64,000 nucleotides of DNA from Candidatus Omnitrophota bacterium (lineage in GTDB: Bacteria; Omnitrophota; Gorgyraeia; B26-G9): assembly GCA_043806135.1 (NCBI GenBank), contig JAZDHG010000098.1:1660-65659 (forward strand). Direction: 5' to 3'. The notes below the pieces were generated by a model that made no database searches, was not told the origin of the DNA, and was given only the letters and a program-made list of their open reading frames with translations. Each line of letters opens with the position of its first letter. The first letter of the stretch is position 1. The position numbers and the translations under genes were made by a program. Positions 30,859 through 64,000 of the stretch are shown here, piece by piece.

Positions 30859-30961
30859 AAGATGTAATTCTCTAGCATAAGACAGTTTTTCAACCCCAAT
30901 CCTAAATCCACAATCTCATGATTTCTTGACACCCCCCACCAATTCAATCTAAAATATAGCT

Positions 30962-30996
30962 AACCCAATTCTGACACCGGGAGTCAGAATTGGGTT
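30962..30996. repeat. REP-like perfect hairpin upstream of the RAYT (14-bp stem aacccaattctgac / gtcagaattgggtt, 7-nt loop)
   Basis: Read directly from the sequence. It shares the core ctgac-N-gtcag with the hairpin downstream of the RAYT. Confidence 0.6.
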
Positions 30997-31048
30997 AAAT
31001 GGATGATTTTGGATATAGGGGAATTATTGATTTAGGAAAGGAGCTGGT

Positions 31049-31687
31049 ATGCCTATAAGAGCGGACGTGGTTAGCGGAAGAATGTATCATGTTTTTACGA
31101 AAAGCATCGCCGGATTTATTGTTTTTAATAATGATGCTGAGTATGACAGGATGATCTATGCATTAAACTATTATAAGATCATGGGAATTGGCTACTGCTA
31201 TTCAGACTATATCAAACATGTTTATAAAACTGATTTATTGAAAGATAAAGATCAAACAGTAGATATTATCGCATATTGTTTAATGCCCACACATTTACAT
31301 TTTATTCTCAAACAAAATGTCGATAAAGGCATATCACTCTTTATGAGAAAGGTTCTCAATAGTTATTCTAAATATTTTAATTGCAAAATTAAAAGAAAAG
31401 GCCCTTTGTGGGAAAGTAGATTTAAAAATGTTAAGATAGAGAATGATGAACAGTTAATGCATTTAACCCGATATGTGCACTTAAATCCTGTTACCGCAAA
31501 CTTGGTAAAAAAACCAAATTTTTGGAAATATTCTTCATATAATGAATATCTGAACAAGACAAAAGAAAAAATATGCAACTATGGCGAGGTTTTGGATATT
31601 GATCCAGGGGAATATAAAGAATTTGTTGGGTCCCAAATAGATCATCAAAAAGAATTAGCGCATATCAAGCATTTAATCCTTAAATAA
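31049..31687 (+). CDS. REP-associated tyrosine transposase (RAYT) / IS200-like Y1 (HUH) transposase
   Basis: HUH motif in CLMPTHLHFIL. Conserved GPLWESRF (compare G-x-LWQ-RF of Y1 transposases). Catalytic Tyr context RYVHLNPV followed by ...WKYSSY. RBS AAAGGAG upstream. Flanked by REP-like hairpins. Confidence 0.8.
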   Translation: MPIRADVVSGRMYHVFTKSIAGFIVFNNDAEYDRMIYALNYYKIMGIGYCYSDYIKHVYKTDLLKDKDQTVDIIAYCLMPTHLHFILKQNVDKGISLFMRKVLNSYSKYFNCKIKRKGPLWESRFKNVKIENDEQLMHLTRYVHLNPVTANLVKKPNFWKYSSYNEYLNKTKEKICNYGEVLDIDPGEYKEFVGSQIDHQKELAHIKHLILK

Positions 31688-31691
31688 CCAG

Positions 31692-31714
31692 ACTCTGACC
31701 CCCGCGGTCAGAGT
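31692..31714. repeat. REP-like hairpin downstream of the RAYT (9-bp stem actctgacc / ggtcagagt, loop cccgc)
   Basis: Read directly from the sequence. Same tctgac...gtcaga core as the upstream hairpin. Confidence 0.55.
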
Positions 31715-31861
31715 GGGGTTGGGTTTTACAATTAACTTGATCTGTTTTTTTTCTTGCGTTTAAATTTTTAGTTTATCCCGCTTGTTTTATCAAAAAAATC
31801 AACTCTGTAACCCGCAAACGCGTTAACACGATAACTATCTTATTTTCAATATGTTATGAGC

Positions 31862-35400: not shown

Positions 35401-38400
35401 TCAAAGTTAATCGAATCAAAAACCGGGAACTTTGGCGACCATCTGCTTTATCTATTCAAGAAGAACGGGCAGCAGAATTTTTGGATGGAGTAAACACATC
35501 TCCTTTTATGACAATATCATTCCCAGTAACAAAGGACAAAAAAGATATAATCAAAGCTGGGGCTCATCCAGGAGATGGAACGACTCGTCCTCAAACAGTT
35601 TCTCGTGAGGCCAATCCTCTTTATTGGGAATTGCTTGGTGAAATGGGAGAACGCACAGGCGTTCCAGGAGTCCTTAATACATCTTTTAATAGGCGAGGAC
35701 CTATTGTTGAGACACCGGAAGATGCCCTCAATACGTATTTTTATGGCGAAGGATTAGATGTGTTAACCATAGGGCATTATATTCTAAGGAATAAGGAAAA
35801 AATCGTTCCAAGTGTGTTGAATGGTGGAGATGAAGTAGATTTGAAAGAATTTTTCAAGTTAGGAAAAAATAAATCCGAACCATTAAACAAAGTGTGGGAT
35901 GAGTTTTGGCTACAAGCCAATAACGTAGCGGCTTCAAGAGCTTCTGCGCATCAGCACTACTTGATAGTTAATGTTGATGATGCTGGTGAGAATCGTGAAA
36001 TCTTAAGAATTCCATTAATTAAAGAAATGTTTCAAGAGGGGCCGCGTGAATTTATGGTTGCAGACCTTGCCGCAAGAATTCAAAAAGGCATAGGGAGTGA
36101 TAAACTGACAACAATAGCTATTGAAACAACAGCACCTCAATTTAGAGAGATAGTTGTTGATTTATTTGAAAAGTTAGCCCCGGAAAATCTTAAAAGAAAT
36201 TGGAATATTGTTAAATTAGGTTTTGGCGAATGCTCGTCTCTTAAAGAGGAGCTACAACAAAGACGAGTTAATTCTACGGAAGCTGTTAAGGACTTAAATA
36301 GGAATATTAAAAAATGGCAAGGAGAACAGCGTATTGATCCTATTTTTATTGCTGTTACGGGACCAGGCGAAAGCGGCAGAACTTCCATTGTGAATGGATT
36401 GCAAGAGAAACATTTTGTGATTAATGCCGATAGATGGAAGCTATCAGAACATCAGATAAATAATTTGCTCAACTATCCATTTTCGCATATGAGATTTAAT
36501 GATTATGTCAATGCGTTAAAAAGATTACAACAGGGTCAAACAGCTATGATCCCGTTACAGAAAACTCTATCAGCAAAATCGCCACAACGAGGGTTTGCTC
36601 TTTTAAATGAAGAAACAAAAGAAAAATATAAGTATATTTTGGTAAAGGAAAACAGTCAGGTTTGGATCCGACATGACGGACAACTATTTGAGGAAGTTAG
36701 ACCTGAGGCGTCTGATATTTTTATTGTCAATACATCTGTTGCATTAAACTATCCGATATTGCGAAATTTATTTGAAGAAGTTTATTTTGTCGCATCCAAT
36801 GAAGAATTGAAAGAACCATCGAAAAAAGGCGAAGATGGCATTATTCCACCCCACAGGCGTGGAGTTGAATTTGCAACAACTATCGTTGAATTAGATGATG
36901 CCCAAACTTTTTGGACTCCGCTTAAGACCCCGCAGCCAATTAAGCAAATAGACTCAATGTGTGTAGCCCTTGCGAATTATTGTCCAGTGGGTTGTTCATT
37001 TTGTTTTATGCGGTCAGTTCAAGATAAAAGAAAAAGAATAGCATTAGGGTCTAAAGCTATAGAAAGAATTCTTTCTTATGCTAAAGAAAATCAAGTTTTT
37101 CGTATTATGTTATCAGGGGGTGAACCTCTTAGCGAGATTGCAACTGTATTAAGGGTAATACGCGAGGCGGAAGTGCCGCATATCACGATTTTTACTAGTG
37201 GCTATTTTGCAGTAAATGCATCTCGGACGGAAGAGGTCCTTGATCAGTTAGTTGCGGCTGTTAGAGAAAGGAAGCAATCGGGAAAGAAGCCTGTACATAT
37301 ACTTTTTGAAGTAAGTGTTGATGAGTTTCATGGCCGGCGTGTACCGCAAAAGAATATTATCAATATTATCAGAGAATTCGAAAAGGATATGGGTGCGAAG
37401 TACTCAGATATGACCCTTGAAGTTAAGGGCATACTAAATGATGGGGATACAATTCCAGAAATAATGCAAACATTAGGGGGAAAGATCCAGGAAGTTCATC
37501 AAAGCGGACCTTTTCCTACTAAACCGATTATTCTCCCATCTGGCTACACATTTAATGTTCGCTATTCTGAAATAAAACTTGTAAAAGACACGATAAATAC
37601 GAAATTATCAAAAAAACGGTTTGATAGGGTCTATCAAAGAAGATTGGAAGATGATATTATCTATATGGGGAGGGGAGAGAAAAGTGGCGCTAGTTTCTCT
37701 GTTAATTATGACGGAGTGGTCTCTGTTAATGACTATTTAGCAAAAGATTTCGTGTTGGGGAATGCAAATAATGATAACTTCAGTGAGGACGTTGACAGGC
37801 GTTTAAGGTTTGACCCTCTTGTTGTTGCATTACGAGAAATTGGATTAAATACTGTTTTAGACATTACTTCTCGTTTGCGACCAAATATACGGAAAAAATC
37901 GATAGAAATGAACAATCAGTTTATTACAATATCCGATATTTTGGAAGACGAAGAATTGAGAGAAAATATCTATAAGGAATTAATTCAATTGATAGAAAAA
38001 AAAGAGAATCCTGCGTTAAAAGGATCAGCTAATAATGTGCAGTTCTTAAATACTGGTGTTGCTGACTTGACTAAAAAGGTATTTATCATTGGTGATGGCC
38101 ATATTGAATTAGGTGGTTCAGTGACCGTAAAAGGCAATAGAAGCCAGATTAGATTCCAAGGAGAAAATCAAGAGAACTTAGTTATTCGGATGGGTAACGG
38201 CTTGGTAATGGAAGATTGCTTTATTTCTTTAAGAAGGAGCCAAGGGGAGGCTCGTGTGGAATGGCAGGGCGATACTTTGATAATAGAGGAAATGGATATT
38301 GGGGAAAATGTCAGAATCACTAAAGGTGGGGAAATCATGAATGTTCCATGGATAGGTGATGATGTAGAGATTGCAGGGTCATTTTTGATTGAGATGGATA

Positions 38401-39938
38401 ATGCGGGCGTTGGCGACCGAACAAAAATTCTAAGTAATAGCGAAGCAAGAATGAGTACTATTGGTTCAGATGTTGTTATTGACCAGCAATCAAAGATATT
38501 TAAATCAATAGTATCTTCAGGAGCTAAAATCATAAATACGAGTTTAGTGGGGGGGCAGGATGAACTCGTTGGTGGATGGAGACAAAAAGATGACGGAGGA
38601 AAAGGGCGCGGTGTGGTTATTGGAAAGGGCGTGGAGTTTCGTAATGGGATTGCACAACATTTAGGTGTTAAAGAAGGCAAAATAAATCCAATAACTGTGG
38701 CTGATGGAGTAAATCTGGATGGAGTTTTTCTGATTTCCGAAAGGAACAAAGGCATACATGCAATCGTTGATTTAGAGCTCGAGGTAGGTCAACGTGTTTA
38801 TATTTTTGATGGTGTTATTGTTGATGAAGTGGTTAAAAAACAAATTCTAGATAAGCTTGATACGTCGGACATTGTTAAAGTAAGTTTTGAAGAGGGGATT
38901 GCCAAAGTAGAAAGTGTTGCTGGATCAGTGGTAACGCCGGAATTATTAAATGTACCCCAGCTAAAAGAGGAATACGCAACTCAAAAGACTCGTGGAATAC
39001 CAAAGGTATACTCAATAGATACCATACAAGAAGCTAAAGATTTAAACGATCTTTTGTTAAAGAGTGATATTTTTATTAGTCGAGCAGGGGAGATCCTGAC
39101 TTCAAGAGGCGAGAGGGATGACATTGCGGTTCGGATTGGTCAGGGAGCATTTGTTTACCCTGGGGTAGAGATTTATGCGAATGAAGGACGAACAGTTAAT
39201 ATAAATGTTTGGGATTTAGGTAATAGGGGTGGAGCTCTAATAATTGCTGATGAACAAGATGTTCAACTTGGCCCCAAGAATCGGCTGGCAGGCCGTATAG
39301 TTGCGGCAGTTATCAGAGATGTAAATGTCGATGCAGAATTTAATAATTTTGGAGGTATTGCGGATACTATTACAGGAAATGCTAAGATTACTATTAGGAA
39401 TCAAGGCATGCTTAAAAATGCTAATCTTTCATCTGATGGAAAAGGCAAAGGTGAGATCGTTTGGGGGTCGTATCAAGGTGAAAACGTTGATATCGAAGTA
39501 ACTGGTGATGTTGTCGTGGGTTTATCATATGGTGGAATAATTCAAGGACAAAGTTTAAGTGATGGGAGAAACTCAATAAAATTAGTTTCAGGATTTAATT
39601 CTGGTTATAGGTCAGTAATTATAGATGAACGTCAAGAACCGGTTGAACAAATTATTTATGATAGTCTTTATAATGCAACGGATTTTATAATGAAGAGTTT
39701 TTCTTCGCATTCTCCTAAGTATGGTGGTATTGATATGACTGATATAAAGTTCAATCGTAGGGGGGCTGGTGTTGATATCCAAATTGATCCGGTGGTGTTG
39801 CAGAGCATGCTCGAACGGGGAATAAATGGATTTACTCCAGTGATTATCAATTTAACACCGATTAATAACATTATGCCTCTTTTAGGACTTGAACCGAAAA
39901 GCAGAGAAAAGGAGTATGAGTTGTCGAGTTTAAATTAA
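32409..39938 (+). CDS. giant multidomain protein (2509 aa): signal peptide; NodU/CmcH-type carbamoyltransferase; degenerate P-loop; radical-SAM core; C-terminal beta-helix-like repeats
   Basis: Likely true start is the ATG at 32415 (MKSLTLKK...). Signal peptide ends ...SIIPPGYAQS. Carbamoyltransferase N domain spans 33985-35110 (VYVLGVVRPSHDAGAALIKDGVLVGAIEEERLNLDKHANAYFPKEA; HHKAHAAAAYYSSGF; VMTGGLALNIASNGKL; FVPAYPADDGTSVGAAL). Carbamoyltransferase C domain spans 35310-35800 (GPRALGNRSIL, SPFMTISFPV, NTSFNRRGPIVETPEDA). IAVTGPGESGRTS lies at 36346-36390. The radical-SAM motif CPVGCSFC lies at 36981-37004, followed by MLSGGEPL. Glycine-rich hexapeptide-like beta-helix repeats span 38080-39560. 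Confidence 0.85.
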   Translation: MLMKSLTLKKQKAVYYRANSLIIAFAFVCTSIIPPGYAQSITTLNLPKPGVMIPQSPAFVPVLLKGMTIYPDNPLRFDFIVDNGNTNFIPDEIKEESNRLVKYFLAAMTIPQNDLWVNLSPYEANKIIPTELGKTELGRDMLAQDYILKQLTASLLYPEKEPGKAFWAKIYMKAKDKFGTAEIPINTFNKVWIIPEEALVYENGNAVYIVKSRLKVMLEEDYQALHQNRKSVKLKVDQSSDLQTKGAALISSQIAREIILPEIEREVNEGKNFASIRQIYQALILAKWHKETIKESLMSKVYIDQKKIMGVDLSDPMVKDKIYAQYVEAFKKGVFNFIKEDYDQVSQKVIPRKYFSGGEKFGDIPLKRTKDARQLNSSPIGDYYKLVVKIDPQMKTGNDDHEIKNLAGVNPSRGSPQLKETNADKLEFDAEGLDIAFKIFDSKADVPELLKKISGIHGVERVDWKDGVLTIISKTEAVKVHPKDLEINERHQIKDRFYVKPISACGEMAVKIYHRDSRDEIKRPNKPVYVLGVVRPSHDAGAALIKDGVLVGAIEEERLNLDKHANAYFPKEATRYLLEANGITWEDIDHIAVTYDYNFYQETPSSKEPHYYYRQKYNLPFKNSYRRYDINKFQSFLEGMAVDYGTGYIPPVTFVKHHKAHAAAAYYSSGFTEPTLVVSIDGQGEDESTTIWIAKDGQLKRIARTTPFTHSLGHFYHIMTVYLGYQRHDEGKVMGYAPYGAPRNLQEERTVNQLREIMRELIWFNRKTEQIEMNQENFELTTISAFPGVKFSESFLQRLVKIIPPMPESKSGRDLQPEDRKRAHLAFAMQERVEQVIDDMVSYYLNENKETKGVKYVVMTGGLALNIASNGKLIEKGTVQADKFFVPAYPADDGTSVGAALSVSTEEYGLDVQNKVQKISFGKTYSDEEIQRTLECFGLEEGVDYERIQNDEQLVNEVTDAIVHDKTVAWFQGGSELGPRALGNRSILNRLTDPEGNLKVNRIKNRELWRPSALSIQEERAAEFLDGVNTSPFMTISFPVTKDKKDIIKAGAHPGDGTTRPQTVSREANPLYWELLGEMGERTGVPGVLNTSFNRRGPIVETPEDALNTYFYGEGLDVLTIGHYILRNKEKIVPSVLNGGDEVDLKEFFKLGKNKSEPLNKVWDEFWLQANNVAASRASAHQHYLIVNVDDAGENREILRIPLIKEMFQEGPREFMVADLAARIQKGIGSDKLTTIAIETTAPQFREIVVDLFEKLAPENLKRNWNIVKLGFGECSSLKEELQQRRVNSTEAVKDLNRNIKKWQGEQRIDPIFIAVTGPGESGRTSIVNGLQEKHFVINADRWKLSEHQINNLLNYPFSHMRFNDYVNALKRLQQGQTAMIPLQKTLSAKSPQRGFALLNEETKEKYKYILVKENSQVWIRHDGQLFEEVRPEASDIFIVNTSVALNYPILRNLFEEVYFVASNEELKEPSKKGEDGIIPPHRRGVEFATTIVELDDAQTFWTPLKTPQPIKQIDSMCVALANYCPVGCSFCFMRSVQDKRKRIALGSKAIERILSYAKENQVFRIMLSGGEPLSEIATVLRVIREAEVPHITIFTSGYFAVNASRTEEVLDQLVAAVRERKQSGKKPVHILFEVSVDEFHGRRVPQKNIINIIREFEKDMGAKYSDMTLEVKGILNDGDTIPEIMQTLGGKIQEVHQSGPFPTKPIILPSGYTFNVRYSEIKLVKDTINTKLSKKRFDRVYQRRLEDDIIYMGRGEKSGASFSVNYDGVVSVNDYLAKDFVLGNANNDNFSEDVDRRLRFDPLVVALREIGLNTVLDITSRLRPNIRKKSIEMNNQFITISDILEDEELRENIYKELIQLIEKKENPALKGSANNVQFLNTGVADLTKKVFIIGDGHIELGGSVTVKGNRSQIRFQGENQENLVIRMGNGLVMEDCFISLRRSQGEARVEWQGDTLIIEEMDIGENVRITKGGEIMNVPWIGDDVEIAGSFLIEMDNAGVGDRTKILSNSEARMSTIGSDVVIDQQSKIFKSIVSSGAKIINTSLVGGQDELVGGWRQKDDGGKGRGVVIGKGVEFRNGIAQHLGVKEGKINPITVADGVNLDGVFLISERNKGIHAIVDLELEVGQRVYIFDGVIVDEVVKKQILDKLDTSDIVKVSFEEGIAKVESVAGSVVTPELLNVPQLKEEYATQKTRGIPKVYSIDTIQEAKDLNDLLLKSDIFISRAGEILTSRGERDDIAVRIGQGAFVYPGVEIYANEGRTVNINVWDLGNRGGALIIADEQDVQLGPKNRLAGRIVAAVIRDVNVDAEFNNFGGIADTITGNAKITIRNQGMLKNANLSSDGKGKGEIVWGSYQGENVDIEVTGDVVVGLSYGGIIQGQSLSDGRNSIKLVSGFNSGYRSVIIDERQEPVEQIIYDSLYNATDFIMKSFSSHSPKYGGIDMTDIKFNRRGAGVDIQIDPVVLQSMLERGINGFTPVIINLTPINNIMPLLGLEPKSREKEYELSSLN

Positions 39939-40758: not shown

Positions 40759-41160
40759 ATGAGTATATTATTAAAAGAAGACATAATCAGGAAAGCAACG
40801 GATTTCTTTTTAAAAAGGCCGGAAGTTAAATTTGCTTATTTGTTTGGGTCTGTCGCTCTTGGAAAGAGCAATAAATTGAGTGATGTGGATATTGCTGTGT
40901 TTATTGACAATGATTATTTAAAAGAAAATAAATTTACTTATGGATATAAAGCAGAGCTTATAACAGAGCTTATTAAAGTTCTAAGAACAAATAGCGTGGA
41001 TTTAGTTATTTTAAACAGTGTCCCTGTTCTGCTTAAGCATAAGGTTTTGGTAGGAGGTAAATTGCTTGTTTGCCGTGATGATTCAGAAAGAATTAGATTC
41101 CAAGTGAAAAGCCTGAATGAATACAGTGATCTTAAATGTTTGTTTTTAACGCATAATTAG
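40759..41160 (+). CDS. mntA: MntA-type minimal nucleotidyltransferase, antitoxin of a HepT/MntA type VII TA pair
   Basis: GS-x9-11-DxD Pol-beta NTase motif in YLFGSVALGKSNKLSDVDIAVFID. 133 aa. Directly followed (11-nt gap) by a HEPN/DUF86 gene. Confidence 0.8.
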   Translation: MSILLKEDIIRKATDFFLKRPEVKFAYLFGSVALGKSNKLSDVDIAVFIDNDYLKENKFTYGYKAELITELIKVLRTNSVDLVILNSVPVLLKHKVLVGGKLLVCRDDSERIRFQVKSLNEYSDLKCLFLTHN

Positions 41161-41171
41161 AAGAGGCCGCA

Positions 41172-41591
41172 ATGGTTGACGCGCAAATATTGGTCGTAAA
41201 GCTTAAGGAATTAGAAAAATATATCGCTGAATTAGAAAAATTAAAAACAACTTCCCTTGAAACGCTGTCAAAGGATTTAAACAAAATATGGTCACTTGAA
41301 CATGGTTTGCAGTTATCGATTCAAATAATTATTGATATTGGCAATCATATTTTAGCTGATATGAAAGAAAGCAATATAGAAACTTATACTGATGTTATTG
41401 ATCTGTTAGGTGTGAAAAAAGTAATTCCCGTTGATTTCGCGAAACGTATACGCGCAATGGTTGGGCTTAGGAATATTCTTGTTCATGAATATGTAGAAGT
41501 GGATTTAAAACAGCTTTATTCAGTATTGCGGAATAATTTAGATGATTTTAAAGAATTCGTTAAATTAATTAGATGTTTTTTGAAGAAATAA
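41172..41591 (+). CDS. hepT: HepT-type HEPN (DUF86) toxin of the type VII TA pair
   Basis: R-x4-HxY HEPN motif in GLRNILVHEY. 139 aa. Gene order NTase-then-HEPN is typical of MntA/HepT. Confidence 0.8.
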   Translation: MVDAQILVVKLKELEKYIAELEKLKTTSLETLSKDLNKIWSLEHGLQLSIQIIIDIGNHILADMKESNIETYTDVIDLLGVKKVIPVDFAKRIRAMVGLRNILVHEYVEVDLKQLYSVLRNNLDDFKEFVKLIRCFLKK

Positions 41592-42005: not shown

Positions 42006-45000
42006 ATGAACAATTTACTTTCCAAATCCTGGTTTCGCTTTATTTCCATTATACTTATCCAGTCATTTTTAATATTAGATATTGCCTGGGCAGGAGGCAC
42101 AGAACTTAATCTTAAGAAAAATTCCGATACGCTTTCCGCCCCGGTTGAAATCTCCCAGCAGATGTTTAATACAAGTTTTGGGAAACTTTATGAGATGAAC
42201 GTTCCTAAGGCGGCTAAGAATTTATCTGTTGGAATAGAAGAAAAAAAATCAAAATGGTCATTATCACAAATATGGCAATCTTTTAAGAAAAGTTTAAAAA
42301 ATAATCTGAGTTTGTTGCATCAGGCTTTTTCAATGGACAAAAAATCTGATGATGACAATGATTTTACGTCAGGCCTTAGATCTATCTTAATCCTGGCAAT
42401 GCTAACCCCCGCTCTTATTGCTTTAAGCTCAAGTCTTGGCTGGACAGGAGATAAAAATTTAATAGAAAGTACAAATGGGCTTATTTCTTATATCCCATTT
42501 AAAGAAATAAAAGATAGCACATATGCTTTCTATTACAACCTTTCCATACAGGGGCAAGTGGTTTTGTTTTATACAATTCTGCCGGTAATGCTCGGTCTTG
42601 TTATTGCTGGAGTTAAGGGTGTATTCGATAGTATAAGTAATAGAAATATTAAAAAAGCTGATCGCTCAAAACTACAATCATTTATGATTCCTCTTATACT
42701 CTCTCCCGCACTTATTGCCTTAAGTTCCAGTCTTAGCTGGGCAGGGGAGGGCACATCAATAGATGGCTCAATAATAGGCGGGGTGTTGGGTACATTGGCC
42801 CTTGCTGTAGGTATCGGGGCGGTGAAGTTCAGGAAAAATATACGCCTTGGTTTAAAGAAGTCATCAAATAAAATTACAGATAAAACTGCCAATGTGTTGA
42901 CGCCAATTTTACAGAAAGTTGTGAAGTCAAAATATTTCTGGGCGGGTCTTGTTGGGCTTTCGGTTTTTGTGAATGGGGGGGGTGTTCCAATGAATGTTGC
43001 TGTAATAGCAACTGTGATATCAGTTTCAGCAGCAATTTCGATTTTGTTTACAACTAAAATATCCCGTTCAACTAAAAAATTACTTACTCTATTATTGTCA
43101 GTGGTTATTTTTACTATTATGGGGTGTTCTCTTCATGAAACTAAAGTTACGAGCAGAAGCTTAACCGAATATCAAAATGTTGGTGATAATAAAGATACAT
43201 TTTCAAAAATAAGTAAAGAAAAAATGAGCTTTAAACAATTGGTTGCTATTTTAGAAAACGAAAATGAGCAGGAAGAAAATAGAATTAAAGCAGCTTTAAT
43301 GTTAAGTGACTTTAAACATAAAAAATTAGAGGATATACTCATAAAACAATTATATGCAACTAAAAAAGTTGATATAAACTTTGAATCAGGGCGAGAAATT
43401 GGTTATATCCGTAGTTTTCATTATGATAAACTAGATGCTAATAAATTGCAAGCAACAGCTGCTTGGATATTGGGGGAAAGGAAGAGTGAAAAAGCTGTTG
43501 AGAACCTGATACTTTTATCTGAATCAGGAGATAACTATGATCATTATCCTAAATTGAATAACTATATTTCTGCTTACTGGCCTCAATATACGGATTTGAT
43601 TGATTCCCGCTTAAATCTTCAAATTAATAGTATTATTGCTTTGGGAAAGATAGGCAACAAAAAAGCAGAGAAGTATTTAAAAACAAGGATGCTAAATAAT
43701 AATAATTGGCAAGTAGATTACGCGGTGTTATCTGCGCTATCTGAATTGGGAGATGAGAAAGCAATATTTTATGAGAAAATTTTTCGAAGTGATATTAGTT
43801 TTGTAGATAGAATAAGCAATGTTGCTAAACAAATAATCCGTGAATACCAGGAAAAGGGATTAGAAAGTCGTGTTAGAGAATATCTGATCGAAGTTTTTGT
43901 GGCAAATTCTAAATGGATAAATAATAGCTTGTATTCTAATCTTCGCTATCAAATGACGGCAGGTGTCTTGCTAAAGTTTTTAGGCGGAGATGATGTTGAT
44001 AGAATCTTTGCTGAATTTTCGAATAACATAGGGTCGAGAAGTATTGGTTATGATTTAAAAGTATTCTATGATCGTCTATTATCAAAGCATGATGATTATT
44101 TCGTTGATTCTTTAGATGTAAGACAATTAATTGATAATTTAAGTTTTACAGATCGAGTAGTGCTATTAACTCGATTAGAGAAGTTATTTGCTCTTAATGA
44201 AGAAGTAAAGCGAACAAATCAATGGTTTCTATTACGAAGGAATGAAATGAAGCCTTCAATAAGGGATAGGGTGGGCAGAGAAATCCCAAAACTAAAAGAG
44301 TTTATTATTAAAGAAATTTCTTCTATTGATGGTTTCGAAGAAATTGTAAAAGAAATGTGCTTTCTTAGGGGGCAAGGTGCTCTTTTTAGAGAAATAAAAG
44401 AGAAACTAAAACAATTTGAATATAAAGATGATAATAGTTCAAAGGAAAGATCGAATATCAGCAAGATTATAATAGCAGTTTTAGCTTCTCCCGTTCTTGT
44501 TGCCTTAAACTCAGGTATTGGCTGGGCGGGGGACGGGGGGCAACAGACGGCAGCGGGATTTAGTAGCCTTTTGAATGGGCAAACGGCACTGGGGATTTTG
44601 TTGGCTGCAGCTGCGTTAATAAGTTTAGACTTTGTATTTTATCGTCACTTTTCAACTAAGATTAAACAATGGGTTTCAAATATTAAGAGCAAGCTAAAAG
44701 ATGATAATACTTCAAGTTATAAAGTAATATCCCCCTCTGAACATGGAAAAAGCAGGCTTTCTGAAAGTCGTGATGAGGCTCAGAAGATCATTTCGTTTTT
44801 AGCCCCACAGGATCAACTGCCTGAAAAAGTAAACGCACTACTGGCGTTTGGTAATGAAGATCTCGAGACGCCTATCCGGGCGGCCAAAGTATATTTTGAT
44901 ACAAAGCCTGAGGTTGTTGTTTTTGCCGGTGGTATTGGTCATTCTACACAAAATCTTTGGGAAATAGGCAGCGAATATTTAGGCGTAGATCTGGAAACAT

Positions 45001-47975
45001 TGAAAGGCTTAAGCGAGGCAGAAATTTTTGCCTGGATTTTTAAGGAAGAATTGAAAAAACTTGGCATGCCTGCCGAGGAAATAGGCAAAATAAAAATATT
45101 ATTGGATACAACCTCACGCAATTCTCAGGAAAATGCCAGAAACAGCTTAAAACTGCTTTATAATAACGGATTTCTAGCAGGCCAGATGAGTATTATTCTT
45201 ATGCAAAAGCCATTGCTGCAAATAAGAGCAGGCGCGAACTTAAGAAGAGAAATTAAGACCATGGAAACAGAGCTTGGGGAGAAATTTTCAATACAATGCT
45301 TTAATCATGCACCATATGTGCCGGATATAAGCTTGATGCAAGATGCAGAATTAGAAGAAATCACAAATGATGCCTTGGGTGAGATTGAAAGGCTGAAGAT
45401 GTACCCTGCTCTGCGTTTTAATTTCATTGATACAATTGAAATTCCAGAAAATGTAAACAAAGCGTATTATGAACTTAAAAAAAATCTTTACCCGGACCGA
45501 TCTATTGAATCTGAGGGAAAACTTGTTGCCGGGTTAATTAAGGAACAGGATAGAACAAGGACTGATATAGATAGGCCTATCCAGGTTGAGTCAGGAGAAT
45601 ATAAAGCAGGTTCGTCTTTTATTAACTTTGCGACTGAACGTTATCAGGGATCCTTATATTTGATTGAAGGAAGCGCTAATGCACAGATAAAAGGTGAAGA
45701 GGGAATTATTCAAACCATAGAATTGGGTAAAGGAGATATTATTAATCTGTTTGTTAACTCTGATATTGTTTTTACAGAGGATTCTAAATTTTATATTTTT
45801 AGGCAGACCGATGCTTCTCAAACTTCAGTAGATCATAAAGAAAAACTTGATGGTGAGGTAACCATTGATTCACGCAATGTTATCGAAAAAGATAGGAATA
45901 TAATTGCTGACGTTTACAGAGATGCGCGAGGTGACTTAATAGCTACTGTTCATAGAATTGATATGGCTTCGCCGGCAAAAATGGTGATGACTACGCCGCG
46001 CAGCGCTGCTATTGGTATTGGTGTAAAAACAGCTATTGGAGATGAAGCTGCTCATCGTCATGAATTAGACGGAAAAAGCAAGATAGAGATTGCACTTTGC
46101 CGAATGGGGTCTCTGACTGCCTATGTTGGGAATAAAGAGGGTAAAGATGTTAATGAAGTCGATGTTAAACAGAATGAGCTGTTAATTCTTTATCCAGACA
46201 GTACTCATGGATTTGAATTCAATAACGCTAAAATGGCAATTATTATCCAGGATCCCGGACGCGGGATTGACAAGGTTGATGCTAAACTTGAAAAAACAAC
46301 TGAAATAACGCTTGGTGCAGCGGAAAAACTTAAGACAGAGCCGGAATCGGTAATTACGGAAGCTATTAAACTTCAGGAACAGGATAAACAGGAAGAGGCA
46401 ATGGCTCTTATCCTTAACTCTTTGCTGGACAAGAACCTTAATCCAGCGGATTATGCGTCTTTTTACCAGGTTTTTGATAAAGAAAGCGGCGATTTTATCG
46501 GATATATGCTTGACGGCAAAGTATATATCAGAGGGGTAGGGTATGAATATAAAGAGTTACTTAATGGCGGGTATAATCCTCTTAAACATGTGCTTCGTGC
46601 CATTTCTGATTTATCTTTTGAAGAAATTATTTCGCTGCCATATGCAGGCAGCTCTTTTAACAAGAATGGGAGGTTGATCGGCACGGTTATTAAAGCAGAT
46701 GATTCGAGGGCACAGAACGGGCCGTATTTGTATACAGCCCAGGAAAATCCTTTAAGAGTCAGGAGTTTTCACGCCGCAAAAGGAACAAAAAGCGAAAAGT
46801 ATCTGCTATCGCCGGTCTCTGAACCTAATCCGTTTGGCAACAGGCCGAGACAGGAAGTATGGCATGTGTTAAAGGGAAAAATCAGGTGTGTGTTCTATAC
46901 CAAAGACAATGAGTATATAGGCGAACAGGTCATGTCTAAAGGCGACACTGCTTTGTTTTCAGAAGCTCATCAGGTGTTTTTTGAAGAAGATTCTATAGTC
47001 CTTGAAATAAGGCAAGGCCCGTGCTCTGCTGATGAGTCGGATAGGCAGATTCTGGATGATGTTGATAATGCTGTTTCAGGATATATAGAAAATGCCGCAG
47101 ACCTTTCGTTCACCGCATTCAAAAAGGAAAACAGGTTAGTTGGAGCAGTAGTCAAAGCAAATCATGTGCCTTTTGACAAGCTGCAAAAATTCTCCGCAAT
47201 GCCTGATCCTATCCAATTTAACAGCTTTTACAAGGATAAAGGCATGAGGGGAACAAAACTTTATCACCCTCCTGTACAGGGTGAAAGTCCCTTCAAGGAC
47301 CAGCCGAGACAGGAAGTGTTATTTATCCTCAAAGGTAAGGTAAGGGTTAAATTTTCTACTGTGGAAAATATCGATGTGGCAGAGGAAATATTAGAGGCCG
47401 GGGATGCTGTTTTGTTTACAGAGGGACATGTGGTTGAGTTCCTGGAAGATACGGTTTTTTTAGAAGCTAAACAAGGACCGTATCCGTCTTCAGGCAATAA
47501 AGATGATGATCAGATTGTATTAAATGAAAACATTGCTCCGGAAAATACAAAATTCGGAAAGCTGGGAATTAATTTTGAACATATTACAAAAACAGCACAA
47601 CTTAACCCTGAGCTGCCGCTTTTTGACTTGATTCTTCAAGATAGTAATTCTCTGGATCCAACCCTGAAGGGAAAAGTTGACCAGTTACAACAGATGGCAA
47701 CAGCGTTCTTTATTAAAGGGGAATTTGATAAAGTAATAGAAACTATTCAAGAAATAATCAAGATATATCCAAATAGTTTTGAAGTGATGCGGCTAATAAT
47801 GGACGGAGTGAAAGAACATAAAGCATTAGCTTCACGCGAACCTGAGATGAAGCTTTTTATTGAATCTAAAGGGACTGTTCTTGAACTGACCGGGGATGAA
47901 ATGCCGTTAAAAGATGCTGTAGGAGCCATTGAAGCAGGTATGAGAGCCGGACAGTTTTTGATGCAGGCGATATAA
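42006..47975 (+). CDS. giant membrane-associated protein (1989 aa): conserved leader; reiterated hydrophobic-helix+WAG modules; DUF218 (SanA/ElyC/YdcF-like) domain; two tandem cupin-like domains
   Basis: RBS AAAGGAA upstream of the ATG. Leader MNNLLSKSWFRFISIILIQSFLILDIAWAGG. Internal modules PALIALSSSLGWTGD (42381-42452), PALIALSSSLSWAGEG (42681-42752) and PVLVALNSGIGWAGDGG (44466-44540). Several other TM helices lie in 42540-43130. DUF218-like segment at 44815-45250 (LLAFGNED...VVFAGGIGHST...TTSRNSQENARNSLKLL). Cupin-like repeats at 46680-47030 and 47140-47490, each with PRQEV...LKGK(I/V)R...GD(T/A)(A/V)LF(S/T)E(A/G)H. Confidence 0.85.
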   Translation: MNNLLSKSWFRFISIILIQSFLILDIAWAGGTELNLKKNSDTLSAPVEISQQMFNTSFGKLYEMNVPKAAKNLSVGIEEKKSKWSLSQIWQSFKKSLKNNLSLLHQAFSMDKKSDDDNDFTSGLRSILILAMLTPALIALSSSLGWTGDKNLIESTNGLISYIPFKEIKDSTYAFYYNLSIQGQVVLFYTILPVMLGLVIAGVKGVFDSISNRNIKKADRSKLQSFMIPLILSPALIALSSSLSWAGEGTSIDGSIIGGVLGTLALAVGIGAVKFRKNIRLGLKKSSNKITDKTANVLTPILQKVVKSKYFWAGLVGLSVFVNGGGVPMNVAVIATVISVSAAISILFTTKISRSTKKLLTLLLSVVIFTIMGCSLHETKVTSRSLTEYQNVGDNKDTFSKISKEKMSFKQLVAILENENEQEENRIKAALMLSDFKHKKLEDILIKQLYATKKVDINFESGREIGYIRSFHYDKLDANKLQATAAWILGERKSEKAVENLILLSESGDNYDHYPKLNNYISAYWPQYTDLIDSRLNLQINSIIALGKIGNKKAEKYLKTRMLNNNNWQVDYAVLSALSELGDEKAIFYEKIFRSDISFVDRISNVAKQIIREYQEKGLESRVREYLIEVFVANSKWINNSLYSNLRYQMTAGVLLKFLGGDDVDRIFAEFSNNIGSRSIGYDLKVFYDRLLSKHDDYFVDSLDVRQLIDNLSFTDRVVLLTRLEKLFALNEEVKRTNQWFLLRRNEMKPSIRDRVGREIPKLKEFIIKEISSIDGFEEIVKEMCFLRGQGALFREIKEKLKQFEYKDDNSSKERSNISKIIIAVLASPVLVALNSGIGWAGDGGQQTAAGFSSLLNGQTALGILLAAAALISLDFVFYRHFSTKIKQWVSNIKSKLKDDNTSSYKVISPSEHGKSRLSESRDEAQKIISFLAPQDQLPEKVNALLAFGNEDLETPIRAAKVYFDTKPEVVVFAGGIGHSTQNLWEIGSEYLGVDLETLKGLSEAEIFAWIFKEELKKLGMPAEEIGKIKILLDTTSRNSQENARNSLKLLYNNGFLAGQMSIILMQKPLLQIRAGANLRREIKTMETELGEKFSIQCFNHAPYVPDISLMQDAELEEITNDALGEIERLKMYPALRFNFIDTIEIPENVNKAYYELKKNLYPDRSIESEGKLVAGLIKEQDRTRTDIDRPIQVESGEYKAGSSFINFATERYQGSLYLIEGSANAQIKGEEGIIQTIELGKGDIINLFVNSDIVFTEDSKFYIFRQTDASQTSVDHKEKLDGEVTIDSRNVIEKDRNIIADVYRDARGDLIATVHRIDMASPAKMVMTTPRSAAIGIGVKTAIGDEAAHRHELDGKSKIEIALCRMGSLTAYVGNKEGKDVNEVDVKQNELLILYPDSTHGFEFNNAKMAIIIQDPGRGIDKVDAKLEKTTEITLGAAEKLKTEPESVITEAIKLQEQDKQEEAMALILNSLLDKNLNPADYASFYQVFDKESGDFIGYMLDGKVYIRGVGYEYKELLNGGYNPLKHVLRAISDLSFEEIISLPYAGSSFNKNGRLIGTVIKADDSRAQNGPYLYTAQENPLRVRSFHAAKGTKSEKYLLSPVSEPNPFGNRPRQEVWHVLKGKIRCVFYTKDNEYIGEQVMSKGDTALFSEAHQVFFEEDSIVLEIRQGPCSADESDRQILDDVDNAVSGYIENAADLSFTAFKKENRLVGAVVKANHVPFDKLQKFSAMPDPIQFNSFYKDKGMRGTKLYHPPVQGESPFKDQPRQEVLFILKGKVRVKFSTVENIDVAEEILEAGDAVLFTEGHVVEFLEDTVFLEAKQGPYPSSGNKDDDQIVLNENIAPENTKFGKLGINFEHITKTAQLNPELPLFDLILQDSNSLDPTLKGKVDQLQQMATAFFIKGEFDKVIETIQEIIKIYPNSFEVMRLIMDGVKEHKALASREPEMKLFIESKGTVLELTGDEMPLKDAVGAIEAGMRAGQFLMQAI

Positions 47976-48470
47976 AGACACAGATTGACACAGATAGACA
48001 AAAACCGTGCAGATGAACACTGATAACTACTGAGGGATGAGGGACGCAATAAAAATTATTAGCTATGAACGACTAGTTATGAGTTATTAGTTACGAATTA
48101 TAAGTTATTTGTATTATTTGGGAGATATGTTTACAATGAAAGATGTTATCAGTTGGTGGCTGAAAAAACTATTTTTACTCATTCTCGACAGACATCCATG
48201 TCTGTCTGCGAGGGCAAAACCTGCTTTTACACATCCATGTATCAGCAGTCTTTGAATCCGCAAAAATAGTTATTTCCATCCAAATACTGTCAACACCAAG
48301 TTACAATAATACAAGTTATTTGTGAAAAATAAAAGCAAAGGAAGAGCTGGTCAATAGTCCATAGTCGATGGTTAATGGGAAAAGAAGTTTCCTGTTACCG
48401 GTTGCCGGTTATGCTGCGGAAAAGAATAGAGTCTAAAAGTGAAAAATAGTTGGAAAACACAAGGGAATAA

Positions 48471-55857: not shown

Positions 55858-55883
55858 TACCGAAGTCGATAACCTAAATAGGG

Positions 55884-55912
55884 TCTGCTGAAAAACTCAT
55901 CAGACCCTGATT
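55884..55912 (+). terminator. terminator-like hairpin after the GH paralog 2 (agggtctgctga...tcatcagaccct), lacking a clean U-tract
   Basis: A ~11-bp imperfect stem read from the sequence. The downstream sequence is gattatag rather than a T-run, so assignment as an intrinsic terminator is weak. Confidence 0.3.
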
Positions 55913-56217
55913 ATAGAGATTAAAGACAAGATTACATAGATTAAATATAGACGGGAAAATTACTGTAATCATTTAAAAATCTGTGTAATCATGGTTCGCT
56001 GAAAAATGTATTTCTGTTAAAAAGTGCAAGGGTTGGAACACTTTTATTCAAAAATCATGCACTTTTGGATATATTTTTGCTGCTGGTTATGTTTAAAATA
56101 CCGACAACATATGAGTTCACATTTGTATTTTCAGTGAACCCTAAATACTGGAAGAAATGGCGAGTAAGACCAAAAGGAAGTAGCGAGAAAAACTTATAAA
56201 AAAAGAAGTGGTGAGAT

Positions 56218-58044
56218 ATGAAATATTTACTCAAAAATGATCAATTTTGTTGCAGAGCGCTGTTAATAATTTGTTGTTTTGTTTTAATGATTTTTGTAAG
56301 TATACATGCAGTGGATACGGTTTTTGCTCTTGAGCTAAAAGCGCAGGTAGAGGATTTTATTAGGCAGGAGAGATTTACCGACCTGCTGGATTTTTTAGAT
56401 ATTCTAAAGCTGGAAAAGGGACAGAATATAACAGATCTGCAGATAGAATATTACTCTGTGCTCGCAAAATCAAAGTACCTCGATTATCTTGAGCAAAAAG
56501 AGGATTGGGAAAATTATTACAGTCATGTGGATCTTTTTAATGCTGAGATAATAAAAAGTGCCAGAGATTTTGTGGCAAAACATCCTGCCTCGCTTGAGAC
56601 CATCGAAATACAGTATATGGCCTGGAAAGCTATTACCCGGGATGAGGAAACGGCATCCGCGGAAGAGACCTTTAGCAAACTTATTGATTTAGTTATCACT
56701 TATACAGAAAAAAGCGGTGATACAGCTGTTTTTAGGGAAATTGCCAGTAGAATGAGTGATGCAGGCAGAGTTCGTCAGCTGAACAAGCTGTTTGATTCTT
56801 ATAAGGAGTTTTTGTCTACCAATGCCGGAAGCGATTCAATTGAACGTCTTGGAGGTATTGCCGAGGAATATTTGCAAAAAGAAAGAATAGAAACAGCAAT
56901 AGTTATTTATGAACATTATATCGACTTGGTATTAAGGCAGTATCCTCAGGCCAAAGCCCAGCTTGTACTAAATGAGCTTGCCGATAAGTTTAGACATCAT
57001 GGGTTTTCTCCTGCTAAAGACGCTGATTTTGCGGAAAAAATTTATAAGTTGATCACCCAAAAATTCGGCCAAGATGCTCTGCGAGAAGAGGATTTGTTCG
57101 GCCGCGGATATAATTTGGAATCGCTGAATATCTATGACAGGGCACAGGAGGAGTATAAATATTTCGTTAAAAAATTTCCCGAAAGCGTTTACTTACCGGA
57201 AGTTTATACGAGAATTGCTGTTATTAATTTGTATTCCCTGGGGCGTTTTGGCATAGCTTTGCAGTTTTTTCAAAAAGTATCGGATGATTTTCCGGATTCA
57301 GCATATGCAGAGTTCTGCGCTTATAAAGCGGCAATACTTTTGCAGTGGAAATCAGAAGATGAACAGGCTAGCCGTCTTTATTCCATGCTTGTTGCCTCCG
57401 GAGGACTTTTTTCCGAGCCGGCAAAGAATCGCCTTAATGAAATAAAAAACAAGGATAAAATGGATGAAGAGGTGCGAAATGTACTTGAGCATTTATCCGG
57501 CAGTGAAGAAAGTTCTGCTATTATGATGACGCTTAAAAGCATGCCGCAAAGGTCTTTTGTCGGTGAACAGGTTATATGGTCGGGCACTGCTCAGGATTTT
57601 TCATCAGGTACTGTGCAGCCGTTTTTTGTCTATGAATGGTTTGGGGATACGGGTATCAATGAAGACCCGGGAAATACCGCTGAATTTTCCACCGGTTATG
57701 ATAATGCTATGCCTCAAATAGCGTGTTTTTCTGCAATGGTTGTCCAGACACAGGGAATAATATGTAAATCACTTTGGGTACATGAATTGAGAGTGAAAAC
57801 ACCAAATAATATTATGAGCTTTAAAACAGGCGAGCCGGTTGAACTTATTGCGGAAGTTTTTCCGAAGAGTATTGAAGATAAAGGTGTGCTCTGGCAATGG
57901 AAGATCGGCGCGGAGGCCGCTAGAGTCATAGGAAATAAGTTCCTGCATTCATATGATGCGCCGGGACGTTACGAAATAGAACTTGTTGCTGATGTGCAAG
58001 GTTCAAGAATATTTAAAAAAATTAATGTGGATATTGTAGAATAG
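56218..58044 (+). CDS. hypothetical secreted protein (signal peptide, helical N-domain, beta-rich Ig/PKD-like C-terminus)
   Basis: ORF with RBS GGTGAG. Hydrophobic N-terminus ...LIICCFVLMIFVSIHA. No catalytic motif recognised. Confidence 0.45.
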   Translation: MKYLLKNDQFCCRALLIICCFVLMIFVSIHAVDTVFALELKAQVEDFIRQERFTDLLDFLDILKLEKGQNITDLQIEYYSVLAKSKYLDYLEQKEDWENYYSHVDLFNAEIIKSARDFVAKHPASLETIEIQYMAWKAITRDEETASAEETFSKLIDLVITYTEKSGDTAVFREIASRMSDAGRVRQLNKLFDSYKEFLSTNAGSDSIERLGGIAEEYLQKERIETAIVIYEHYIDLVLRQYPQAKAQLVLNELADKFRHHGFSPAKDADFAEKIYKLITQKFGQDALREEDLFGRGYNLESLNIYDRAQEEYKYFVKKFPESVYLPEVYTRIAVINLYSLGRFGIALQFFQKVSDDFPDSAYAEFCAYKAAILLQWKSEDEQASRLYSMLVASGGLFSEPAKNRLNEIKNKDKMDEEVRNVLEHLSGSEESSAIMMTLKSMPQRSFVGEQVIWSGTAQDFSSGTVQPFFVYEWFGDTGINEDPGNTAEFSTGYDNAMPQIACFSAMVVQTQGIICKSLWVHELRVKTPNNIMSFKTGEPVELIAEVFPKSIEDKGVLWQWKIGAEAARVIGNKFLHSYDAPGRYEIELVADVQGSRIFKKINVDIVE

Positions 58045-62403: not shown

Positions 62404-63107
62404 TGAACAGACTTTTAAAGCGCTCCGCTGTAACGCTTATCGAGCTGCTGGTTACTATGGGTATTCTTGTGCTTCTTGTGACCATCCTGTATTCCGTCTT
62501 TAATGTAACTCTTCGCGGCTGGCAAAAGTCTGATAATCTACTGCAGGTTACTACGGCTGCCCGGGTTGCTCTTGATCAAATGTCCAAAGAGATAGCAAGC
62601 TCTATTATAAAAGCAGGCAGTAACTCCTATTATTGCCTGGGGTTTGATAAGAGTTCAGGCAGCGGTTGGAGAACCGACAGTATTGGGGATGAGTTTTACT
62701 TTATTGCGCCTTTAAAACCCGGCAACACTGACGGAGGATCTGACCTGTGTGAAGTCGGATACTGGCTTGACGGGCAAGGCACGGCAGATACAAACGATGA
62801 TAGTCTGAGACGGTTTTATGTTACAGATACAAGGGACCAAGCAGGATCATTATTTGATTTTAATTTTTCCTCTCCATCCGGAAAGTCAAATTCGGATGAA
62901 TTTGTATTTAATGTTATTGGACTTGAATTTGAATTTTATAAAGCCGGGGATCCTACCCCCCAGAATACTTGGGATTCTACAACAGAAGGCGGTCCCCCGG
63001 CAAAGATAAAAATCCGCATAACCGTAGCCTTTGGTAAAGGCAACTCTTCTACTAATCCTGAATTTGCCAGTAAAATTTTCAGCACAGTTGTTTCCTTACC
63101 TCAATAG
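62403..63107 (+). CDS. prepilin-type N-terminal cleavage/methylation domain protein (type II secretion / type IV pilus pseudopilin-like)
   Basis: N-terminus MNRLLKRSAVTLIELLVTMGILVLLVTIL fits the class III signal (positive charge, TLIELLV with conserved Glu at +5). 234 aa. Confidence 0.6.
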   Translation: MNRLLKRSAVTLIELLVTMGILVLLVTILYSVFNVTLRGWQKSDNLLQVTTAARVALDQMSKEIASSIIKAGSNSYYCLGFDKSSGSGWRTDSIGDEFYFIAPLKPGNTDGGSDLCEVGYWLDGQGTADTNDDSLRRFYVTDTRDQAGSLFDFNFSSPSGKSNSDEFVFNVIGLEFEFYKAGDPTPQNTWDSTTEGGPPAKIKIRITVAFGKGNSSTNPEFASKIFSTVVSLPQ

Positions 63108-63307
63108 GTTATATCCAGGAGTAGTTATCCCAACCAACTTGTTTTTATAAAAAATTCCTCAAAAAATGTGTATAGTGGGATGATTATCCAATCTTTTTAT
63201 TGGAAACCTAACGTATTTATTTACAGCGAGTTAAAATTAAATACGCTGAGGGTCAAGAAGCAAAGCTTTTATGTTCTTTTTTATATAGCAGATACTAGGC
63301 GATTTGA

Positions 63308-63336
63308 TTGACAATCATGACCTTTTTTGTTATATT
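63308..63336 (+). promoter_or_regulatory. sigma70-like promoter TTGACA-17-TATATT upstream of the tandem inverted-repeat elements and the 63853 gene
   Basis: TTGACA at 63308-63313, 17-nt spacer, TATATT at 63331-63336. Confidence 0.45.
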
Positions 63337-63493
63337 ATTTTCAAATCAAAATAATCTAACTATTTATATTTACAATCTATTGCGATAAATTTTATTTTTG
63401 CAATTATGCTAAATTCATATAATAAAGAGAGCTATTTTAGTGAATGTTCGCGGTGTTCCTAGGCGCTGATACCTATTGTAGCCACTCCTGAAT

Positions 63494-63830
63494 ATTTGAT
63501 GGCACTGTTGAAAAACACACATCTGATGCGTTAAACGCTAGCTTACTTGTGCGGCGTACGACGAGTATGCCTCCGCGTTCGTTCCCGAATGCCTTGCCTG
63601 TGCCCAGAAGGGTACATCTGCACATTTTGTAACAGCGCCTTGATTGCCCCAGATGTAAACCAGGAAAGTTATCCCTATGTGTCTAATAGGGGGCTGTTGA
63701 AAAACACAGTTCTATACAGAACAGCGCAGATTAAAGATACGAGATAATCACAGATTATCGAAGAGCGATCTGCGATCATCAGTGAAACATCCGTGATCAT
63801 CTGCGCGGCTGTGTTGTTTTGTAACAGAGC
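63494..63830 (+). repeat. two tandem ~150-nt units each bounded by imperfect inverted repeats (ctgttgaaaaacaca ... tgttttgtaacag); candidate structured leader RNA or MITE-like pair
   Basis: ctgttgaaaaacaca at ~63497 and ~63683. ttttgtaacag(c/a)gcc at ~63625 and ~63815. The reverse complement of the 3' box resembles the 5' box. The unit interiors are GC-richer than their surroundings and contain internal hairpins. Confidence 0.4.
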
Positions 63831-63852
63831 CAATATATAAGGGTTCAAGATA

Positions 63853-64000
63853 ATGTACAAAGTTATTCTTACAGTTTTATCCAGCGCCTTCGTATTATGT
63901 TTATGGCTGCTGCCTGTTTTGGAAAAACTTGCCAAAAAAAAAGGTCTTATTACCCATGAATCTCCTGAAAAAATTGACAAAAGGAAAATCCCGTATATTG
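63853..64000 (+). CDS. 3'-truncated ORF, possible glycosyltransferase family 4 (WecA/MraY-like) N-terminus
   Basis: Open to the window end. N-terminal TM helix then ...LPVLEKLAKKKGLITHESPEKIDKRKIPYI loosely resembles the L..LA...GL.D.P..RK.H...P..GG entry motif of WecA/MraY enzymes. The match is weak. Confidence 0.3.
   Translation, partial: MYKVILTVLSSAFVLCLWLLPVLEKLAKKKGLITHESPEKIDKRKIPYI

Follow-up and report, generated by a model that had tools for sequence, protein, structure and literature searches.

Two short units, of 139 and 142 bp, lie in the leader of a gene for an MraY/WecA-family glycosyltransferase in the window (the whole 64-kb stretch of DNA analysed here), and we regard each of them as probably a separate non-autonomous, MITE-like transposable element with terminal inverted repeats and ~5-bp AT-rich duplications. 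This reading follows from the terminal inverted repeats, the AT-rich direct repeats around them, the empty sites found in relatives, the combination of shared termini with unrelated interiors, and the occurrence of a related element elsewhere in the window. Of these, the two kinds of repeat, the clean empty sites and the second-locus element can be read directly from the DNA. On the same basis, units 1 and 2 appear to be two different members of one terminus-defined family, inserted independently at two AT-rich spots. The host is a Candidatus Omnitrophota bacterium, and its nearest proteins and loci are all labelled Omnitrophota.

An earlier note on this DNA had proposed tandem riboswitch-like aptamers, a pair of small RNAs or a duplicated MITE. 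The last of these was right as to kind; the units were not duplicated, however, as their interiors are unrelated and each has a direct repeat of its own. A transposase acting in trans would recognise the terminal repeats (none fitting was found in the window), integration into AT-rich DNA would proceed through a staggered cut of ~5 bp, and repair of that cut would leave the short flanking direct repeats.

The leader and its two units

The spacer between a pseudopilin-like gene and the MraY/WecA-family glycosyltransferase gene extends over 63108-63852. The features of this region are the following.

63308..63336, + strand: sigma-70-type promoter TTGACA-17-TATATT with a TG extension (score 11/12 with TG)
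63426..63495, + strand: conserved leader core upstream of unit 1, with a conserved hairpin at ~63428-63489 (aligns with L038, L040, L041 and L043)
63496..63500, unstranded: left TTGAT direct repeat, 5 bp, putative target-site duplication of unit 1 (flank comparison)
63501..63639, + strand: unit 1, 139 bp, no ORF, termini GGCACTGTTGAAAAACAC... and ...ATTTTGTAACAGCGCC (flanking repeat, fold, absence in orthologs)
63640..63644, unstranded: right TTGAT direct repeat of unit 1 (flank comparison)
63645..63684, + strand: conserved leader segment between the insertions, TGCCCCAGATGTAAACCAGGAAAG... (leader alignment)
63685..63688, unstranded: left AATA direct repeat of unit 2 (flank comparison)
63690..63831, + strand: unit 2, 142 bp, no ORF, termini GGGGCTGTTGAAAAACACAG... 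and ...CTGTGTTGTTTTGTAACAGAGCC (flanking repeat, fold, absence in orthologs)
63832..63835, unstranded: right AATA direct repeat of unit 2 (flank comparison)
63853..64000, + strand: start of the MraY/WecA-family (PF00953) glycosyltransferase gene, truncated by the window end

The strong TTGACA-17-TATATT promoter that had been placed upstream of the units is indeed found at 63308-63336, with a TG extension in addition, and the same TTGACA-17-TGnTATATT arrangement is kept in nine orthologous loci. It would drive the leader and the glycosyltransferase gene, whose ATG at 63853 likewise agrees with the start assigned earlier; the N-terminus of the product is identical to P0003. Genes downstream of the glycosyltransferase in relatives match Pfam Amino_oxidase/NAD_binding_8, ABC2_membrane and ABC_tran. 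The promoter is unusually conserved though the orthologs share only about 60% protein identity, and ~20-40 nt downstream of it a CTAACTATTTATATTT-CAA stretch is likewise kept unchanged in nine loci. The leader outside the units (63308-63500 and 63645-63852) contains, besides the conserved hairpin, a possible anti-Shine-Dalgarno pairing: UUGnCCC, in the 5' part of 63645..63684, can pair with the AAGGGUUCAA ribosome-binding region (alignment columns 182-188 with 235-242). This leader could be a protein- or NusG-paralogue-type control site of the polysaccharide operon. We do not claim its core as a true riboswitch: it is conserved, yet its folding energy is unexceptional against shuffles (z about 0.2) and only 2 of 48 predicted pairs covary.

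Both units are ended by the inverted repeats GGnnCTGTTGAAAAAC. The 15-nt 5' box CTGTTGAAAAACACA has exactly two occurrences in the window (63505-63519 and 63694-63708), and the 3' box TTTTGTAACAG(C/A)GCC is exact at 63625-63639 and 63817-63831. The recurrence of the boxes described earlier was thus confirmed at exact positions, although the two 5' boxes are 189 nt apart and the two 3' boxes 192 nt, rather than ~186 nt. The described resemblance between the reverse complement of the 3' box (CTGTTACAAAAC/T) and the 5' box (CTGTTGAAAAAC) amounts to 10 matches in 12 positions. The inverted repeat reaches outward to GGCA/GGCG in unit 1 and to GGGG/GGCT in unit 2, and the ends of both units share the consensus GGnnCTGTT(G/A)(A/C)AAAAC. 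Outside these ends, the flanking repeat of unit 1 is perfect over 5 bp; that of unit 2 is exact over 4 bp only and, when taken as 5 bp, reads AATAG versus AATAT, with one mismatch.

Between the shared ends the two units have nothing recognisable in common, their interiors aligning no better than shuffled sequence (z = 0.17). They had been described as different, GC-rich and hairpin-rich. GC content is 53% in unit 1 and 44% in unit 2 against 19-30% in the surrounding leader, and + strand folding relative to shuffles gives z = -3.5 and z = -5.4, respectively. The GC-rich interior of unit 1 forms three hairpins, and its predicted fold is closed by a long-range end-to-end stem, as had been suggested for both units. 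For unit 2 that suggestion did not hold in the minimum-energy fold, which has a local hairpin at each terminus and a long central hairpin, although its ends could also pair. Pairing of the inverted repeats includes a G-U pair and is therefore better on the + strand.

Compact, highly structured units in a non-coding region might also be two independently transcribed small RNA genes, as the earlier note had allowed. We consider this extremely improbable: neither unit has a promoter-like site directly upstream or a terminator after it (the sole terminator-like match is weak and internal to unit 2), both lie inside a leader transcribed from the strong upstream promoter, and both are missing in close relatives.

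Further candidate identities were tried and set aside. A retron msr/msd was rejected in that the window ORFs scanned against Pfam gave no reverse-transcriptase match. For an integron attC site, the unit ends GAAAAAC ... GTTTTGT have purines and pyrimidines reversed relative to RYYYAAC ... GTTRRRY, and no integrase was matched in the Pfam-scanned ORFs. A CRISPR-like or TIGR-like array was dismissed on there being two units only, with interiors that are too long. Insertion of the IS200/IS605 type (PATEs), by a fixed tetra- or pentanucleotide and without duplication, does not agree with flanks that differ and are each repeated on the right.

Empty sites in orthologous leaders

Orthologous leaders were gathered via the glycosyltransferase and the neighbouring glycoside hydrolase. 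In eight other Omnitrophota assemblies one or both units are missing at clean empty sites, with promoter, leader and start codon retained. Loci that lack both units include the following.

L038: both units missing, 92% protein identity to the L001 ortholog
L040: both units missing, 88% protein identity to the L001 ortholog
L041: both units missing, 71% protein identity to the L001 ortholog
L043: both units missing, 64% protein identity to the L001 ortholog
L051/L052: both units missing

In L038, L040, L039 and L051/L052, which carry neither unit, the flanks rejoin exactly as predicted, and the window matches relatives once unit 1 is removed with one TTGAT and unit 2 with one AATA. The empty site of unit 1 reads ..GATTTGAT joined to TGACCC.. 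in L038, L040, L041 and L043, and that of unit 2 reads ..GCTAAT joined to TTATAAGGG.. in L038, L040, L041 and L051. The leader of L043 is conserved and empty at both unit sites; L041 has both sites empty and a different insertion elsewhere in the leader. In L046-L050 the promoter is retained and the boxes are missing, the leader being divergent there. Presence/absence polymorphism with intact empty sites in relatives is a pattern expected of MITEs.

Unit 1 is known from the window only and is missing in every orthologous leader examined. Unit 2 has a counterpart of 88.7% identity at the same site in L001, L044 and L045, and is missing in L038, L040, L041, L043 and L051 and also in L042. From this distribution, unit 1 appears to be a lineage-private insertion and unit 2 an older one common to one other lineage. 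Comparison of the gene DNA makes the window the outlier of the clade, and yet unit 2 is lacking in L038, L040 and L042; its presence in the outlier window and in L001 thus calls for precise losses or else for more than one insertion at a single site.

The L001 lineage has a history of its own. At L001 1-470 (also in L044 and L045) the TTGACA promoter and the entire leader core have been lost, apparently by a deletion between two TAAT microhomologies, and unit 2 follows right after a TGaTATAAT extended -10. A different element with 19-nt inverted repeats, GTCAAATAAGCTACAAGTT...AACTTGCAACTTATTTGAC, is found at L001 83-177.

Absence in relatives could also be loss, and the units could then be structured modules that an ancestral cis-regulatory leader RNA already contained (riboswitch-like or tandem aptamers, or else expansion helices). 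Several properties of unit 2 speak for this. Its identity of 88.7% between two lineages is close to the 87% of adjacent coding DNA; its last 35 nt and the stretch from there to the start codon are identical between the window and L001; it is retained in L001, where the remaining leader has been deleted; and its substitutions between the window and L001 keep seven + strand pairs and break three, against two kept and eight broken on the minus strand. This pair-retention test is not significant, however (P = 0.25, two lineages only), so that RNA-level selection on unit 2 is suggestive only.

Weighing on the other side, most orthologs are without the units and have exact junctions, direct repeats flank the units, the same termini enclose other interiors at an unrelated locus, and the interiors of units 1 and 2 are non-homologous. 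The Rfam/Infernal check for a known leader RNA was also negative, giving noise only on 62500-64000 at E up to 10 and no match at gathering thresholds in the whole window. Ancestral modules are consequently very unlikely in our assessment. The tandem riboswitch-like aptamers of the earlier note fall with them, there being only Rfam noise, non-homologous interiors and units that are missing from leaders otherwise aligning base for base.

Related elements and the search for a transposase

The expectation set out earlier for the contrary case was that the boxes would occur only here, with no mobility signature. What we find is the empty sites described above and a related element at a second locus:

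55881..56141, + strand: related 261-bp element, 5' end GGGTCTGCTGAAAAACTCATCAGACCC, 3' end as reverse complement GGGTTCACTGAAAATAC

The 5' end of this element can also be given as GGGTCTGCTGAAAAAC, and by itself folds into a strong hairpin (z -5.5). The element has a perfect TAAATA repeat on its two sides (55875-55880 and 56142-56147) and is missing from the orthologous 16-nt spacer in both L051 and L052. Nested inside it, at 55992-56141, is a 150-nt hairpin with inverted repeats. The 10-mer AGATTAAAGA, ~40 nt from the 5' end, is common to unit 2 and this element (read by eye). The ribosome-binding region of the gene that starts at 56218 (56148-56220) appears tandemly duplicated relative to L051 (GGAAGAAATGGCGAGTAAG ... 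AAGAAGTGGTGAGATATG).

Further insertions are seen in the orthologous leaders. L042, an 88% ortholog, carries an element with an unrelated interior that ends ...CTGTGTTTCGCAACAGTCCC (also ...GTTTCGCAACAGTCCC) at most 3 nt from the unit 2 site. Its ends, TGTTGCGAAAC and GTTTCGCAACA, are perfectly complementary and its fold has z = -6.8; the 5' end is cut by the contig start. The insertion of L041, ~130 nt long (L041 2770-2912), begins GGACTGTT, contains GTTTCGCAA close to the 3' end and has TATC on either side. It lies inside the conserved core hairpin, has a family-like match at the 5' end only and folds poorly. Its target region is also copied inside it (ATATCTATTG), which suggests that it arose in a composite or repeated event and not by one simple insertion; the L041 insertion is decayed or composite. 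Altogether, at least four insertions have occurred in this one leader among close relatives.

Units 1 and 2 fit the pattern GGnnCTG(T/C)TG..AAAC at both ends; the 55881 element fits it at its 5' end, and more loosely at its 3' end, and the L042 element fits it at its 3' end. The interiors of these family-like elements are mutually unrelated. Other attributes of MITEs are likewise present. At 139, 142 and 261 bp the window elements are small (MITEs being below ~500 bp) and have no transposase ORF, the only ORFs touching them being spurious ones that cross their borders. Terminal inverted repeats are shared, with variants carried by the L042 and 55881 elements, and target-site duplications are seen as TTGAT, AATA and TAAATA, with TATC at the L041 insertion.

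A more distant palindromic look-alike, GGTGGCTGAAAAAACTATTTTTAC... with reverse complement GGATGGAAATAACTATTTTTGC (z -5.5), lies at 48155-48282, and no target duplication is obvious around it. A portion of its interior (TTTTACACATCC.TGTA...AATCCGCAAA) recurs at another locus in L051 (17503-17565) and in L052, upstream of the glycosyltransferase promoter.

Searches for further copies by exact two-box patterns covered 185,579 GTDB representative genomes, JGI metagenomes and IMG/VR. The sole true match of these exact-end scans was the orthologous unit 2 in L001. All other exact-box matches (genes of Methanosarcinales and Melainabacteria, giant-virus contigs, termite-gut repeats and a eukaryote-like mat contig) proved on inspection to be coding sequence or unrelated repeats and were attributed to chance. 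BLAST of the units against plasmids and phages gave no match, and six-frame peptides of both units, compared with 5.8 billion proteins for copies under spurious gene calls, gave nothing. A literature search for the box sequences yielded PCR primers only. No repeat copy sharing the interior of unit 1 or unit 2 was found at another site in the searched collections, so copy number looks low for a classical MITE; the window itself holds three elements with related termini at two loci, with no interior in common.

In the window we found neither an autonomous element nor a transposase that has matching ends. Pfam scans covered its ORFs of at least 120 aa apart from three giant ones; the giant ORFs, of 9129, 2509 and 1989 aa, are at 2894-30283, 32409-39938 and 42006-47975. 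These scans also matched an adjacent ORF pair at 40759-41591, a nucleotidyltransferase (Polbeta/NTP_transf_2) and a HepT-like ribonuclease, that looks like an MNT/HepT toxin-antitoxin pair. No tRNA or tmRNA was found in the window.

The sole transposase-like gene in the window encodes a RAYT-like Y1 protein (ORF 31049-31687, Pfam Y1_Tnp), and it raises the prospect that the units are REPIN-like pairs of REP hairpins, moved as single-stranded DNA by this Y1 (HUH) transposase. The gene is bracketed by two related hairpins, at 30961-30997 and 31686-31720. Moreover, self-complementary hairpins of the type GGGnCUG..loop..CAGnCCC make up four termini, at the 5' end in unit 2, its L001 copy and the 55881 element and at the 3' end in the L042 element, and the G-U pair that makes inverted-repeat pairing better on the + strand is in keeping with such a route. 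Nevertheless, the hairpins that bracket the gene (..TCTGAC..GTCAGA..) occur nowhere else in the window and are unrelated to the GGGnCTGTTGAAAAAC hairpins of the unit termini, although REP hairpins are expected to match those flanking their RAYT. The protein scores 69.8 bits against NCBIfam REP_Tyr_transpos, under the curated cut-off of 80, and unit 1 is without terminal hairpins. Y1 transposition in the IS200/IS605 family uses a fixed target or cleavage sequence, whereas the flanks here vary (TTGAT, AATA, TAAATA, TATC) in a manner that fits staggered-cut duplications. We therefore consider mobilisation by the RAYT-like protein unlikely. In L051, a 212-residue gene at 1481-2119 also has a weak Y1_Tnp match.

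Possible roles in the leader RNA and comparison with known systems

As MITE-like insertions between the conserved promoter and the start codon, both units are probably transcribed within the 5' UTR. Each would fold alone into a closed domain and leave the flanking conserved leader intact, and by analogy with Correia and ERIC elements the units may alter mRNA processing, stability or translation. It is tempting to speculate further that low-copy, hairpin-ended cassettes repeatedly target two 5' UTR spots and have been co-opted as exchangeable RNA modules tuning expression of the surface-glycan operon. This idea draws on the maintenance of unit 2 since two lineages split, its retained + strand pairing (at the P = 0.25 given above), the invariance of its 3' end and of the ribosome-binding region, its persistence in L001 despite loss of the rest of the leader, and the L042 cassette that brings a different interior to within 3 nt of the unit 2 site. 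We nonetheless consider it unlikely.

In the uncultivated phylum Omnitrophota, the analysis identifies a family of small mobile elements that, to judge by searches of the literature and of databases, is undescribed. Bacterial leaders with MITE-like insertions are well known, and the biology here is ordinary. Recognising the units as such removes a false riboswitch or small RNA lead, offers the leader of a conserved surface-polysaccharide operon as a test case for the tolerance or use of 5' UTR insertions, and provides in the terminal-repeat consensus a handle for finding the mobilising transposase.

Among known systems, tandem riboswitches such as those for glycine also place structured RNA domains in tandem in a 5' leader. 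Unlike these and other Rfam leaders, the units have no Rfam match, are non-homologous to one another and are not conserved in orthologous leaders. Like the units, REP and REPIN sequences lie outside genes and form hairpins; two inverted terminal hairpins enclose a spacer, and a RAYT-like gene is present in the window. The units differ from them in termini that mismatch the RAYT-flanking hairpins, in the variable direct repeats at their flanks and in the lack of terminal hairpins in unit 1.

The nearest analogues of units 1 and 2 are Tn3-derived TIMEs and the Correia and ERIC elements. Tn3-family inverted repeats start with G-runs, GGGTCTG standing at the outer end of the Tn3 repeat, and the termini here likewise begin with G-runs. 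Like TIMEs, the units are small, non-autonomous and bounded by inverted repeats. TIMEs generate 5-6-bp duplications in AT-rich DNA, for example AAATT, AAATA and AATAT, and are usually present in one copy per genome (PMC4133298); the flanks here, TTGAT, AATA(T) and TAAATA, are of the same kind. Unlike TIMEs, which are 262 bp long and have 38-bp repeats homologous to those of the Tn3 family, the elements described here show clear end similarity over only ~16-20 nt, as judged by eye. An inner box of the ...ACGCTAAG type is not found at both ends of the units, the only ACGCTAG-like string being at one end of unit 1. The window showed no Tn3-family transposase, and the host belongs to the Omnitrophota rather than to Pseudomonas. 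We therefore do not assign the elements to the Tn3-derived TIMEs, which their ~5-bp repeats, AT-rich targets, G-rich ends and low copy number only recall.

Correia elements (CREE/NEMIS, in Neisseria) and ERIC elements (in enterobacteria) have common interiors and number tens to hundreds per genome, whereas interiors are unrelated here and copy number is apparently low. They also duplicate TA, in contrast to the ~5 bp duplicated around our units. In other respects the likeness is close. Like them, the units are small and palindromic, with inverted-repeat ends and intergenic or 5'-leader sites; their presence varies between strains, they would be co-transcribed with flanking genes, and their paired ends can form long stems. 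At the RNA level, the inverted repeats of Correia elements are sites of RNase III cleavage, and ERIC elements influence mRNA decay (PMC10969869).
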